This document shows, piece after piece, positions 9,792 to 12,648 of a stretch of DNA of 32,680 bases; positions within the stretch are counted from its first letter, which is position 1; every line of letters starts with the position of its first letter. A program made the position numbers and the translations under genes. Source of the stretch: Patescibacteria group bacterium (GTDB taxonomy: Bacteria > Patescibacteriota > Microgenomatia > Curtissbacterales > DATCJB01); the NCBI GenBank assembly GCA_036507455.1, contig DATCJB010000009.1:1-32680 (forward strand). The letters are read 5' to 3'. The notes under the pieces are model-generated. The model was not told the DNA's origin and did no database searches. It saw only the letters and a program-made list of their open reading frames with translations.

Positions 9792-10475
9792 ATGATTAAA
9801 GAACTATCTGAAGACGTCGAAAAAGCGATAATGCCAAAAGACCCTTTTTCTAATAATAGTTATCCGGATTGGGAATCAGAGAAAAAAATTCTTGAGTCTG
9901 CAAAATCAGGAGATTTGGATGCTCTGGGGAGGATTTATGACATCAATGTCAACCGTGTTTATAACTATTCTCTTTCCAAACTTGCCAATATTCAAAATGC
10001 TGAAGACGTGACCGGAGAAATTTTCATAAAAGTTGTCATGGGTCTGGATAATTACGAATATCGTAAGATTCCGTTTGCAGCATGGTTAATGAAAATTGCC
10101 AGAAATGAAGTTGTTTCTTTCATAAGAAGAAACAACAAGTGGGCTCACGATGGTCAATTGCCGGATGAATTAGTTGATAATAGAAATATAGATCCGTCTG
10201 CGATTGTTGAGCAGTCGATGATGCAAGAAGACTTAAGAACAGCTATAGCAAAACTTCCGGAAGCACAAAGAGAAGTAATTATTCTTCGTTTTGCTTCGGG
10301 ACTTTCAGTTAGTGATACGGCAAAAGCTCTTGGAAAAAGAGAGAATAACACAAAAGTGCTTCAGCACAAAGGTCTGCTGCGTCTTCAGGTTTTAATGAGT
10401 TCTAAATATCCTGAAATTTTGAAAAGTAATAATCGTAACTTCCAATATCAAAAACCGACGGTCAATAATATTTAG
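9792..10475 (+). CDS. RNA polymerase sigma factor, ECF (sigma-70 group 4) type
   Basis: 227 aa. Region 2 is GDLDALGRIYDINVNRVYNYS...AEDVTGEIFIKV...FAAWLMKIARNEVVSFIRR. The region 4 HTH is LPEAQREVIILRFASGLSVSDTAKALGKRENNTKVLQHKGLLRLQ. Confidence 0.85.
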   Translation: MIKELSEDVEKAIMPKDPFSNNSYPDWESEKKILESAKSGDLDALGRIYDINVNRVYNYSLSKLANIQNAEDVTGEIFIKVVMGLDNYEYRKIPFAAWLMKIARNEVVSFIRRNNKWAHDGQLPDELVDNRNIDPSAIVEQSMMQEDLRTAIAKLPEAQREVIILRFASGLSVSDTAKALGKRENNTKVLQHKGLLRLQVLMSSKYPEILKSNNRNFQYQKPTVNNI

Positions 10476-10480
10476 AATAT

Positions 10481-11572
10481 ATGACAAAGGAAAATTTTAT
10501 TCAAAATGGTCAGTTTCCTATCGAAACCAAAGGTGAAAATCTTCCCAAAAAGACCGTTAACGAGTGGATTACGCAAGACTATCAAAATGCGCTTGTGGTA
10601 GCTTCGAATGTTCTCACAAGAATTCAAATGAAAGATTTTGAGAGTTACGTTAAGGGGGCTTTGCTTCAAGGTAAGTCGGCAAAAGAAATCGCTAATGAAT
10701 CCGGAAGGGTATTAACTACTTTCGAAGACGTATTACAAAGAGCAAAAGTTCGATTATCGAATAGGCTCAATTTGGATCTTGGAAACGGAAAAGCCGGTCA
10801 CAGCCTGAAAATGGAATATAGAATAAAATACCGCAAAGAATTAATTGATAAAGCGAAAAACGGTGACAAAGAAGCAGTAATTAAACTTATTAATTCGTTT
10901 CCCGGAACCATAAATAGTTTCACTAACAGGATTGAAAGCGATCAACAGTCTTTGTTTTTGGCTGTAAGTTATCAAAAAGTAAATGAGAATATTGACCAAT
11001 TTGAATACAGAGGAAACAATGAACTTAGACACTGGCTTTTAAAACTTTTCAGTCAAGCAGAGATAAATTACTTTAGAAAAAAACAAATTAGAAAAAAGAT
11101 TTTGGCACGTCAGGAAGATCTTAATTCCGCAGAAAACGGACTGGTTGATTATTTTAACCTTTGGGTTAACAACAACCCGCGAAAACTAAAAAAGATTCTG
11201 TCCGGTATGCCAAAAAAAAGAATGTTAATCTTTCAGGCCGCAAGCGGCGGAATGTCGAACGAAGACGTTGCACGTGTTTTCAAGTTAACCAGTAAAGATT
11301 CTGCCAAAGTGACAATTCACAACATAAAGACAAAAATAATGCACGATGCAGGGGTTACAATTGGAAATGGTGTGATTAAACTCCAGGATGGTAAAGAGTT
11401 TAAACTCTTAAGAGGATTGGCTAAGTCAAAAAATCATTATTTAAATCTAATTGGTATGGCAAAAAAGGGTAAGTTAAAAGAAGCAGTTTTGTTTTTGGGT
11501 AGATACTATGTAGACAAAAAAACGGCAGATTTAATTGATCAAATGCCTTCAAACGAAAAAACAGCGGCTTAA
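10481..11572 (+). CDS. hypothetical multi-HTH protein with divergent sigma-70 region 2/region 4-like segments (paralogue of 11626..12648)
   Basis: 363 aa, starting 5 nt after the ECF sigma gene.
- N-terminal LuxR/r4-like HTH: LLQGKSAKEIANESGRVLTTFEDVLQRAKVRL.
- r2-like block: KAKNGDKEAVIKLINSF...FEYRGNNELRHWLLKLFSQAEINYFRK, which aligns with NYEYRKIPFAAWLMKIARNEVVSFIRR of the upstream sigma.
- r4-like HTH: MPKKRMLIFQAASGGMSNEDVARVFKLTSKDSAKVTIHNIKTKI.
- C-terminal excisionase-like segment: KKGKLKEAVLFLGRYYV.

The function is inferred only. Confidence 0.6.
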   Translation: MTKENFIQNGQFPIETKGENLPKKTVNEWITQDYQNALVVASNVLTRIQMKDFESYVKGALLQGKSAKEIANESGRVLTTFEDVLQRAKVRLSNRLNLDLGNGKAGHSLKMEYRIKYRKELIDKAKNGDKEAVIKLINSFPGTINSFTNRIESDQQSLFLAVSYQKVNENIDQFEYRGNNELRHWLLKLFSQAEINYFRKKQIRKKILARQEDLNSAENGLVDYFNLWVNNNPRKLKKILSGMPKKRMLIFQAASGGMSNEDVARVFKLTSKDSAKVTIHNIKTKIMHDAGVTIGNGVIKLQDGKEFKLLRGLAKSKNHYLNLIGMAKKGKLKEAVLFLGRYYVDKKTADLIDQMPSNEKTAA

Positions 11573-11590
11573 TCGGTTTTGTGTTTTAAC

Positions 11591-11618
11591 TTGAAATAAA
11601 AATTTCATTAGTTATAAT
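11591..11618 (+). promoter_or_regulatory. sigma70-like promoter TTGAAA-16 nt-TATAAT directly upstream of the second sigma-like gene
   Basis: TTGAAA at 11591-11596 and TATAAT at 11613-11618. Only 7 nt separate the -10 box from the ATG at 11626 and there is no SD, which implies a leaderless or near-leaderless mRNA. Confidence 0.45.
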
Positions 11619-11625
11619 TCTTCAT

Positions 11626-12648
11626 ATGACGGTTCTTAAAGAACGTGAAGCGCAAGTCCAAACCGAAATTATCAGACCGCAATCTTTGTCTCATTGGATT
11701 GCCGAGGATCCTCAAAGAGCGATTGATTTTGCAAAAGAAATTTTACCACCTTTTAAAATTCCGACATTTCAACTTTATGTGCTTGGAACGATGGAAAACG
11801 GATTGAATTCGTTTCAAATAGCAAGTGCTTTAGGTAAAAAACAAAGTTCTTACGATGATGAGATTAAAAATTGCCGTTCAAAAATTGCCGATGCTTTAAA
11901 CTTTCCAGTTGTTCTGCTAAGAGAGCCCAGGTTGATAGATTTGTATAAAGAAAAACAGGCAAAAAAAGAATTTTTTAAAGCAAAGAACGGTAATCTTAAT
12001 TCTATGGTCAAAATAGCGATGCTTGGGGAAAAAGAATTAAATAAATTTTCAAGACAACTGCCTGAATCACTTCGAACACAATATCTAATTTTTACAACCT
12101 CTAAAATATTAACAATGTTACCTAGAATTGAATGGCAGGGTTTTGCTCAACTTACATCCTGGCTTAGATCAACTTTTCATTCTTGCTATCTTGATTACCG
12201 TAAGATGTACGACAGGCAACATTTGGGAAAAAACACAACACCGCTTTTTACTCATCCGCCTACTGATCTTCTGGTATTGTGGAGAAACAAACATCCTCAA
12301 AGAGCAAAAGTCATAATTGATTCTATGTCTCCTATGAGAAAAGAAGTTTACAGACTGTCACAAAATAACATACCTCACGAGAGAATTAAAGAAATTTCCG
12401 GAAGTTCTTCGGCTCGTTCGGTTAAAGTTTTAGTTTTAGAAGCAAGAAGAGAATTTACGGCTAAGGCTAAAATAAAAATTCCTTCAAAATATAAAGTACT
12501 GACTGAATTTGCAGATTCATTTCAAGAAGCCGAAAGAATGAGATCTGCAATCAAAGCAGGTAAAATCAAAGGCGTCTTATTATTCAATGGAAAATATCAC
12601 ATAACAAGAAATATTTACGAGTCTCACATTAAATCAAAATCAAATTAA
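11626..12648 (+). CDS. hypothetical multi-HTH sigma-like protein (paralogue of 10481..11572)
   Basis: 340 aa, collinear with the preceding ORF (this ORF / preceding ORF):
- SHWIAEDPQRAIDFAKEIL / NEWITQDYQNALVVASNVL
- FQLYVLGTMENGLNSFQIASALG / FESYVKGALLQGKSAKEIANESG
- KAKNGN / KAKNGD
- IEWQGFAQLTSWLRSTFHSCYLDYRK / FEYRGNNELRHWLLKLFSQAEINYFRK
- LWRNKHPQRAKVIIDSMSPMR / LWVNNNPRKLKKILSGMPKKR
- GKIKGVLLFNGKYHI / GKLKEAVLFLGRYYV. Confidence 0.6.
   Translation: MTVLKEREAQVQTEIIRPQSLSHWIAEDPQRAIDFAKEILPPFKIPTFQLYVLGTMENGLNSFQIASALGKKQSSYDDEIKNCRSKIADALNFPVVLLREPRLIDLYKEKQAKKEFFKAKNGNLNSMVKIAMLGEKELNKFSRQLPESLRTQYLIFTTSKILTMLPRIEWQGFAQLTSWLRSTFHSCYLDYRKMYDRQHLGKNTTPLFTHPPTDLLVLWRNKHPQRAKVIIDSMSPMRKEVYRLSQNNIPHERIKEISGSSSARSVKVLVLEARREFTAKAKIKIPSKYKVLTEFADSFQEAERMRSAIKAGKIKGVLLFNGKYHITRNIYESHIKSKSN

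Follow-up and report, generated by a model that had tools for sequence, protein, structure and literature searches.

What kind of protein is encoded by the two genes that follow an ordinary extracytoplasmic function (ECF) sigma gene on a contig of a Patescibacteria group bacterium (NCBI GenBank assembly GCA_036507455.1, contig DATCJB010000009.1)? Promoter choice in bacteria rests on sigma factors, and to our knowledge almost nothing is known about how transcription is regulated in Patescibacteria. We analyzed positions 1 to 32,680 of the contig (the window, 32,680 nucleotides), which carry a cassette of an ECF sigma gene and two further open reading frames, ORF2 and ORF3. An earlier note, made from the sequence alone, had read ORF2 and ORF3 as paralogous proteins with several helix-turn-helix (HTH) modules, possibly a new class of sigma or sigma-mimicking regulators. 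Homology places both proteins in the sigma-70/ECF superfamily, yet not among the ordinary ECF sigmas. We tentatively favor the explanation, to which we give slightly less than even weight, that they are genuine alternative sigma factors and that two accessory DNA-binding modules have been added to them. The cassette comprises the following features, in window coordinates.

9792-10475, plus strand: ECF sigma gene (227 aa; canonical group 4, from the open reading frame list, Pfam and NCBIfam), with an N-terminal leader of ~28 aa, sigma-2 at ~aa 29-118 and sigma-4 at ~aa 139-204.
10476-10480, plus strand: 5-nt spacer from the ECF stop codon to the ORF2 ATG.
10481-11572, plus strand: ORF2 (363 aa), divergent paralogue with the layout sigma4'-sigma2-sigma4-winged helix.
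10547-10780, plus strand: ORF2 sigma4', an N-terminal sigma-4-type HTH (aa 23-100; domain hidden Markov model (HMM) and hhalign).
10802-11119, plus strand: ORF2 sigma-2 (aa 108-213), with KAKNGD (region 2.1), the FEYRG specificity loop and W185.
11147-11356, plus strand: ORF2 sigma-4 (aa 223-292), preceded by the family-specific linker helix DYFNLW..NP.
11396-11554, plus strand: ORF2 probable C-terminal winged helix (aa 306-358, GKLKEAVLFLGRYYV; domain HMM).
11591-11618, plus strand: ORF3 promoter, TTGAAA-16 nt-TATAAT, sigma-70-type, 11/12 consensus.
11626-12648, plus strand: ORF3 (340 aa), four-module paralogue at the conserved anchor position adjoining rsmI.
11674-11907, plus strand: ORF3 sigma4' (aa 17-94; domain HMM and hhalign).
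11932-12246, plus strand: ORF3 sigma-2 (aa 103-207), with KAKNGN, the IEWQG loop and SWL.
12262-12474, plus strand: ORF3 sigma-4 (aa 213-283), with the linker helix DLLVLWRNKHP and the recognition helix SARSVKVLVLEARR.
12487-12645, plus strand: ORF3 probable C-terminal winged helix (aa 288-340, AGKIKGVLLFNGKYHIT; AlphaFold).
12640-13314, minus strand: rsmI (16S rRNA 2'-O-methyltransferase; Pfam TP_methylase, NCBI name), the right-hand anchor.

The gene coordinates and the gaps of 5 nt (ECF-ORF2) and 53 nt (ORF2-ORF3) given in the earlier note were exact. The NCBI proteins HEY5600580-82 of the metagenome-assembled genome match the cassette; HEY5600580.1 is annotated as a sigma-70 family factor, and ORF2 (HEY5600581.1) and ORF3 (HEY5600582.1) are each a 'hypothetical protein'. 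The first protein is indeed an ordinary ECF sigma with regions 2 and 4, scoring above the Pfam gathering score for Sigma70_r2 (46.3 bits, 3.6e-12), Sigma70_r4_2 (42.1 bits, 6.8e-11) and Sigma70_ECF (1.1e-4), and above the NCBIfam cutoff for TIGR02937 (84.1 bits vs 42.9). The collinear paralogy of ORF2 and ORF3 also withstood a shuffle control. BLASTP aligned them over 332 residues (21% identity, E 2e-26), the Smith-Waterman score stood at z = 35.7 (300 shuffles), and four blocks were each significant alone (z = 20.5, 13.6, 11.5 and 7.2). ORF2 and ORF3 each carry a net charge of about +24, whereas the ECF sigma is a neutral protein. When the ECF sigma was compared with ORF2 and ORF3 one by one, BLASTP gave no match and the Smith-Waterman z values were 3.9 and 0.6; on these comparisons, its relationship to the two proteins is visible at the profile level only.

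Searched as a single sequence, ORF2 showed only sub-threshold Pfam matches to HTH_16, r4_2 and GerE (Sigma70_r4_2, E 0.035, 14.2 bits), and all 23 of its sub-threshold NCBIfam matches were sigma factors, collinear with it. ORF3 had no Pfam match and one weak NCBIfam match. A joint ORF2 and ORF3 profile matched a profile of 16 ECF sigmas with hhalign (99.0%, E 8.8e-18), and aa 116-290 of ORF2 aligned with aa 28-202 of the neighboring ECF sigma, which is the whole sigma2-linker-sigma4 core. This alignment reproduced the pairing of KAKNGD and FEYRG..LRHWLLKLF with the neighboring ECF that had been made by eye. Taken by domain, and using the family of ORF2, ORF3 and their relatives described below, hhalign matched the family sigma-2 to ECF sigma-2 (98.6%, E 4.8e-16) and the family sigma-4, the second region-4-like HTH of the earlier note, to ECF sigma-4 (98.6%, E 7.2e-16). 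The N-terminal HTH, which had been read as region-4- or LuxR-like, proved to be a full sigma-4 domain, matching both ECF sigma-4 (97.9%, E 6.3e-13) and the family's own sigma-4 (98.1%, E 7.5e-14). Negative cross-controls between domains gave 2% or less. In agreement, aa 43-97 of ORF2 match the NCBIfam model of SigH region 4, the family profile matched full-length sigmaE among the PDB sequences (1or7, 4e-7), and its N-terminal part matched the SigE sigma-4 and GerE domains there. One family member, P0005, exceeds the Pfam r4_2 threshold (33.3 bits vs 25.7).

The structural models pointed in the same direction. The AlphaFold model of ORF2, made with a 14-member alignment, had a predicted local distance difference test (pLDDT) of 86.3 and a predicted TM-score (pTM) of 0.52, the latter consistent with four domains on flexible linkers. 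Every top Foldseek match of this model, among PDB and viral models, was a sigma factor. The full-length E-values were no better than a modest 2e-3 because model and solved structures arrange their domains differently, so that only per-domain superposition is informative; the modelled ORF2 sigma-2 superposed on region 2 of E. coli sigmaE (4lup, 5or5) with TM-scores of 0.69-0.72 and a root-mean-square deviation of 2.7-3.0 Å.

The fourth module is less firmly placed. The C-terminal 55-60 residues of ORF3 were modelled by AlphaFold with pLDDT 89.2 in a beta-alpha-alpha-beta-hairpin-alpha topology. The nearest folds found by Foldseek were Tn916 Xis (first, E 0.41), then Pukovnik Xis, RdfS, BldC, RacA and NmlR, with TM-scores of 0.5-0.65 (0.55-0.65 for RacA, BldC and NmlR) and all E > 0.1. 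By sequence, Pfam HTH_17 (PF12728) matched 4 of the 14 C-terminal segments (best E 1.4e-3), none at the gathering score, and Pukovnik Xis (4j2n) matched the C-terminal profile at E 0.14. We rejected the top PDB sequence matches of that profile, designed PPR proteins, as an artefact produced by the tenfold repetition of a 12-residue motif. In each instance the winged helix comes immediately after a sigma-4-type domain, via a conserved GIxLPxGYxPI connector. For ORF2, whose C-terminal domain reached pLDDT 88-93 in the full-length model, we infer the fold class from the ORF3 domain model. For the excisionase/MerR-like motif proposed for the C-terminus, support was weak, with a resemblance in fold that stayed below significance. 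We regard the first three modules of the layout (sigma4'-sigma2-sigma4) as established, and an excisionase/MerR-like winged helix as the probable fourth. All four modules and both connectors are kept across members at only about 20% overall identity.

Does this core still have what a sigma factor needs? In the sigmaH holoenzyme, conserved electrostatic contacts anchor sigma-2 on the beta-prime coiled-coil, the specificity loop holds the flipped -10 base, which stacks on W81, and the essential linker between sigma-2 and sigma-4 threads the active-site cleft and the RNA exit channel (Li et al. 2019, PMC6411747). We audited the equivalent residues after aligning 14 family cores together with 19 ECFs that stand alone and with four ECF modules fused to family members. 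The stand-alone set consisted of 16 aligned ECFs, E. coli sigmaE, and the ECFs of two related loci (L005 and L007). The W81-equivalent aromatic is present in 11/14 family cores and 19/19 stand-alone ECFs, and is W in both ORF2 and ORF3. Twelve of the 14 family cores carry the loop W/Y (the W of 'WQG'), which is common to the nearest ECFs (e.g. P0017, FKWQG), and 13/14 have a hydrophobic residue at the sigmaH F72 position. The K-V pair of the sigma-4 recognition helix (11/13 family members) is more uniform than among ECFs, where it is variable. From the W81 equivalent to the start of region 4.1 there are 57 residues in ORF2 and 54 in ORF3, within the 52-65 of the stand-alone ECFs. No sigma-3 or sigma-1.1 was found in ORF2 or ORF3, and the linker has the length that an ECF requires. 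The fused ECF modules have a shortened spacing of 27-37 residues and degenerate motifs, so that, of the two sigma cores in such a fusion, that of the family looks better preserved.

Searched exhaustively with HMMER at E <= 1e-3, 1.84 billion cluster representatives yielded 29 proteins: ORF3 with two sister-strain fragments, 13 real relatives (P0003 and P0005-P0016) and 13 ordinary ECF sigmas. The latter, ~165-200 aa long and matching roughly positions 120-290 of the profile, were the only non-family matches in the whole collection. The family is extremely rare, with about 16 clusters among these representatives. A word-indexed protein search with ORF2 returned no match, not even ORF2 itself, because its cluster representative is a 161-aa fragment. 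No relative was found with ORF3 as query against the GTDB genomes, and the family was found in none of 80 iPGM-anchored GTDB loci (best identity only ~50%), including four from Patescibacteria (Ca. Curtissbacteria, Ca. Woykebacteria and two further Patescibacteria). The family is restricted to a Patescibacteria lineage for which no GTDB species representative was found. The nearest relatives of ORF3 are P0003 and P0005 (30-31% identity), both adjacent to rsmI (L005, L006). ORF2 is roughly equidistant from all members (18-26% identity), which marks it as an old or fast-evolving extra copy. An identical ORF3 protein is encoded on three further metagenome contigs; the strain contigs are 99.6-99.9% identical with one synonymous change, which gives no power to test selection. 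The module content of the members varies as follows.

Four-module form: ORF2, ORF3, P0005, P0010.
Without sigma4': P0006, P0008.
Without the central sigma-4: P0009.
Without the winged helix: P0014.
With an additional C-terminal ECF-like module: P0003, P0007, P0011, P0012, P0015, P0016.
N-terminal ECF sigma, then repeated sigma-4/winged-helix units, then the family core: P0013.

The repeats of P0013 that are equivalent to the C-terminal domain match HTH_17. P0014 and P0016 have short linkers. The fusions represent at least two independent events in opposite orders, family-then-ECF in P0007, P0011, P0012, P0015 and P0016, and ECF-then-family in P0013. In a sister strain, the C-terminal end of the window's ECF continues in frame into ORF2 within one protein, P0004 (188 aa, run SRR3989344; '...QKPTVNYIQNGQFPIE'). 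Compared with window positions 10464-10501, this junction needs a 29-nt deletion, from the stop codon through ORF2 codon 7, and one substitution. The same run also yielded a normal ORF2 N-terminus (P0002), and the P0004 junction is either population heterogeneity or an assembly artefact. P0006, P0008, P0009 and P0010 share the start peptide 'MGERI' (P0007, 'MGQERL'), even where sigma4' is missing (P0006, P0008); these conserved codons may be a nucleotide-level or translation-initiation signal rather than serve protein function.

Family genes occupy the same chromosomal position in seven distinct loci, with iPGM or enolase upstream and rsmI in convergent orientation on the other side.

Window (= L001-L003): ECF, ORF2, ORF3, rsmI.
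L005: iPGM, ECF, P0003, rsmI.
L006: PPDK, enolase, iPGM, P0005, rsmI.
L007: iPGM, P0007 (family and ECF), 290-aa ECF, rsmI.
L008: P0013, rsmI, ..., LexA.
L009: enolase, P0016, rsmI, ..., LexA.
L010: iPGM, P0011, an unannotated minus-strand gene at the rsmI position.

The cassette is conserved in related genomes, and fast-evolving ORFans, the outcome that the earlier note had set against its proposal, are not indicated. An ECF-type module is adjacent to or fused with the family core in 6/7 distinct loci (the window's organism counted once), with ECF orthologues beside the family genes in L005 and L007. No ECF sigma is present on the 17.7-kb contig of L006, which carries P0005. The stand-alone 290-aa ECF of L007 (3225-4097) has a C-terminal extension of its own with a faint HTH_20-type winged-helix signal, another case of a DNA-binding module appended to a sigma core at this locus.

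How are these genes expressed and controlled? The strong promoter noted ahead of ORF3 was confirmed (TTGAAA-16-TATAAT, 11/12). Only two sites of at least 11/12 occur in the whole 32.7-kb window, and ~0.001 would be expected by chance in a 60-nt stretch. The ORF3 -10 box ends 7 nt before the ATG, and the mRNA is probably leaderless or nearly so, judged from this spacing. We inspected the promoter regions L004 1-45, L007 1615-1668, L009 1350-1405, L010 415-505, L006 7715-7775 and window 11613-11628. TATAAT-like -10 boxes lie 8-20 nt before the family-gene ATG in L004, L006, L007, L009 and L010, and the distance is 8-13 nt in L004, L007 and L009. These boxes are often TG-extended, and no Shine-Dalgarno sequence is visible. 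The pattern suggests that family genes are transcribed by the housekeeping sigma and that leaderless or near-leaderless mRNAs occur in this lineage. By eye, no ECF-type autoregulatory promoter (AAC...CGT) was found upstream of the cassette in the seven loci. The ECF gene and ORF2 are likely co-transcribed and translationally coupled: no Shine-Dalgarno sequence is visible in their 5-nt spacer, and in L005 the family gene's ATG directly abuts the ECF stop. The other window site of at least 11/12, TAGACA-17-TATAAT (18694-18722), lies just inside the annotated TTG start of uvrB (18687), whose true start may be further downstream than annotated.

The expected partner of an ECF sigma, an anti-sigma, is missing from the cassette, as the earlier note had observed. 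Hydropathy over 19 residues peaks at 0.66-0.70 in ORF2 and ORF3, which have no transmembrane helix. All three proteins lack an HxxxCxxC motif, and ORF2 and ORF3 contain 0 and 2 Cys, respectively. The flanking genes encode metabolic enzymes and RsmI, and the gaps of 5 and 53 nt are too short for a small anti-sigma to hide there. Since the genes have promoters of the housekeeping type and lack an anti-sigma, they would be controlled through transcription or within the protein itself.

Our leading, still tentative, explanation is that ORF2 and ORF3 act as true alternative sigma factors. We favor it because the sigma2-linker-sigma4 unit, the DNA-reading residues and the spacing are conserved at ~20% identity, because P0005 occurs without any ECF on its contig, which argues that a family protein can work alone, and because the prior is high that a protein with sigma-2 and sigma-4 is a sigma factor. 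A complete ECF core would have gained a second sigma-4-type HTH at its N-terminus and an excisionase/MerR-like winged helix after sigma-4, and the products would most likely still be specificity subunits that bind RNA polymerase. Sigma-2 would read the -10 element by its conserved specificity loop, and sigma-4 the -35 element. The winged helix may contact DNA upstream of -35, and sigma4' the DNA on the other side of sigma-2, in which case the N-to-C order of the modules would track the promoter from downstream to upstream. The three-gene array may be one state of a locus that repeatedly duplicates, fuses and splits sigma modules, and sigma4' is probably the remnant of a fused upstream ECF after sigma-2 loss.

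Several observations weigh against this explanation. Neither ORF2 nor ORF3 reaches any curated sigma threshold (ORF2, TIGR02937, 24.1 bits vs 42.9). The region 2.2 acidic residue is found in 7/14 family cores vs 18/19 stand-alone ECFs, and the Phe/Tyr in 1/14 vs 17/19. At the D/Q/E/F positions of region 2.2, ORF2 has L/A/V/Y and ORF3 has Q/I/F/T, and the D..QE triad is wholly lost. The region 2.4 Asn follows the same trend (4/14 vs 17/19). A net charge of ~+24 is more usual in free DNA-binding proteins than in sigma factors, and repeated ECF fusion in both orders suggests that family proteins and ECFs are physical partners and not independent. A module is missing from some members, such as the central sigma-4 from P0009, and others are short-linkered (P0014, P0016). 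Because the region 2.2 signature and all curated thresholds failed, we do not file ORF2 and ORF3 as ordinary ECF sigmas. Two other readings, that of a partner of the ECF sigma and that of a sigma mimic, stay serious in view of the lost region 2.2, the positive charge and the recurrent ECF fusions.

The first of these, unlikely on balance, holds that ORF2 and ORF3 are sigma-derived DNA-binding partners of an ECF sigma, co-activators or tethers. They would no longer occupy the sigma site on RNA polymerase but bind DNA via three or four HTH modules, and their contact with the neighboring or fused ECF or with the holoenzyme would recruit or position it at particular promoters. The ECF-type module adjacent or fused in 6/7 loci, with at least two fusions of opposite order, forms a Rosetta-stone pattern, to which P0004 adds the in-frame junction of the window's own ECF and ORF2; adjacent paralogues can, however, fuse through simple stop-codon loss without interacting. 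The loss of the core-binding motif in region 2.2, the strong positive charge and the gap of just 5 nt between the ECF gene and ORF2 also fit a partner. A partner would have no obvious need for a full sigma-2, for the aromatics of the flipped-base pocket or for canonical sigma2-sigma4 spacing, and P0005 stands without an ECF within 17.7 kb. In addition, the fused ECF modules, being degenerate and short-linkered, are poor candidates for the polymerase-binding half.

A related reading, which we consider doubtful, is that a family protein and an ECF form a composite initiation factor of one or two polypeptides, acting jointly on one promoter region. Such a factor would hold two sigma cores and up to four HTH modules; for example, one core could sit on RNA polymerase, and the other, with its accessory modules, could read extended upstream or downstream DNA.

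We consider it improbable that ORF2 and ORF3 are sigma mimics, that is, a cytoplasmic anti-sigma or decoy whose degenerate core competes with the ECF sigma for RNA polymerase or for a putative small inhibitor, by analogy with the sigma-like domain of PhyR in its partner switch. Sigma-like domain mimicry has one known precedent, PhyR/NepR/EcfG (PMC8999054), and the lost region 2.2, the missing conventional anti-sigma and the genetic linkage to an ECF sigma would suit it. The cassette, however, contains no receiver domain, kinase or NepR-like small ORF, and its 5- and 53-nt gaps leave no room for one. A decoy needs no DNA reading, whereas this family has kept its specificity loop, the recognition helix of sigma-4 and two additional HTH modules, and constitutive promoters and the occurrence of P0005 without an ECF fit poorly.

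That ORF2 and/or ORF3 are decaying, functionless remnants of tandem ECF duplications is hardly credible: very low identity to ECFs, failing curated models and variable module content would agree with decay, but the frames are intact (340-363 aa), the four modules are kept at ~20% identity and at a fixed position in seven loci, the AlphaFold models are confident (pLDDT 86-89), and ORF3 has a near-consensus promoter of its own.

A defence-system reading and a phage origin were both rejected. PADLOC gave no match for a defence system, and the place of the locus on the chromosome, flanked by housekeeping genes, is conserved. The match to the type III-E CRISPR sigma model (NCBIfam CAS_III-E_sigma, 26.6 bits vs a cutoff of 100) reflects generic sigma similarity. 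For phage origin, PHROGs returned only generic sigma matches, and the same conserved position applies.

The surroundings of the cassette hint at what it might regulate. Upstream lie genes for a PPDK-like protein, enolase, iPGM, a PduL-type phosphotransacylase and acetate kinase; downstream lie the convergent rsmI and then pyruvate:ferredoxin oxidoreductase. The cassette thus sits inside a compact cluster for pyruvate/acetate fermentation (2604-9738 and 13400-16101, the latter side holding pyruvate:ferredoxin oxidoreductase alpha/gamma and beta), whose genes would be natural candidates for its regulon. The acetate kinase (8737-9738) is short, with 333 aa and a Pfam match that starts only at position 79 of 392; its N-terminal 'IFNAGSSSFKW' motif is present, and compared with standard AckA it may have lost an internal segment. 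The 3' ends of ORF3 and rsmI overlap by 9 nt (12640-12648), and tail-to-tail overlap or abutment with rsmI also occurs in L006, L007, L008 and L009. No terminator-like site was seen between the ORF3-type gene and rsmI, which is probably not a functional part of the cassette. Further downstream, at 18040-27064, lies LexA and, divergent from it, a run of uvrB-uvrA-(transglutaminase-like)-uvrC.

The known elaborations of ECF sigmas are sensor-type extensions, anti-sigmas, phosphorylation and mimicry. If ORF2 and ORF3 are sigma cores with two added DNA-binding modules, repeatedly fused to a second core, they would represent a new principle, in which promoter recognition is extended by recycled sigma domains, and a first handle on transcription control in Patescibacteria. 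A composite factor, if real, would be a new way to build promoter specificity in bacteria with very few classical transcription factors. The natural fusions, together with the natural deletions of sigma4', sigma-4 or the winged helix, make a directly testable system. Confined as it is to one narrow lineage without cultured members, the family may have limited reach in biology at large; its architecture and fusion pattern would nonetheless surprise a transcription specialist.

How does the family compare with known systems? No model of Pfam, NCBIfam, PHROGs or PADLOC claims ORF2 or ORF3, and nothing relevant was found in the literature on sigma biology of the candidate phyla radiation/Patescibacteria. 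The text of the ECF re-classification has no such architecture or group; some of its groups (ECF130, ECF201) lie near HTH proteins (PMC7826278). To this extent the earlier proposal of an undescribed class stood; alternative sigma, anti-sigma and co-sigma, the roles it had listed, are all candidates.

The nearest kin are ECFs with fused extensions (ECF41, ECF42, ECF44/CorE and ECF56/SigG1, and, N-terminally, ECF121/BldN and ECF36/SigC). Like these, ORF2 and ORF3 combine a sigma2-linker-sigma4 core, without sigma-3 and without a separate anti-sigma, with extra domains in the same chain; in extended ECFs such domains are thought to control or extend activity (PMC7826278, PMC8999054). Extensions described so far are of the sensor or regulatory kind (SnoaL, TPR, Cys-rich, zinc finger), whereas both appendages of ORF2 and ORF3 are of DNA-binding type. 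Described N-terminal extensions are generally short, with only that of BldN well described; ORF2 and ORF3 have a whole second sigma-4 there. Unlike extended ECFs, some family members add an entire second ECF core, and the region 2.2 motif is lost.

PhyR, too, has a diverged sigma2-sigma4 module, which standard sigma models no longer match and which is genetically linked with a genuine ECF (PMC8999054). PhyR works with a receiver domain, the anti-sigma NepR and a histidine kinase, none of which is present here, and has no additional HTH modules. Pfam and NCBIfam gave no receiver-domain match in the cassette proteins, and the neighbors are AckA and RsmI. SigO-RsoA of Bacillus subtilis also spreads sigma modules across adjacent genes and shows that such modules can work in trans (PMC7826278), but it keeps sigma-4 and sigma-2 on separate polypeptides, whereas all three cassette proteins carry both. 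Class I anti-sigmas (ASD/ZAS) differ in the HxxxCxxC motif and the transmembrane helix, both of which ORF2 and ORF3 lack. The C-terminal domain shares with HTH_17 proteins (Tn916 Xis, phage Xis, BldC, RacA) the beta-alpha-alpha-beta-hairpin-alpha topology and the 'G-K-hydrophobic-x-x-hydrophobic...G-x-Y/W-Y' signature. Those are free small proteins, whereas this domain is always fused after sigma-4, and the ORF2 and ORF3 matches are below significance. New with respect to ECF extensions, PhyR and SigO-RsoA are the duplicated sigma-4 before sigma-2, the winged helix after sigma-4, and the tandem sigma cores.

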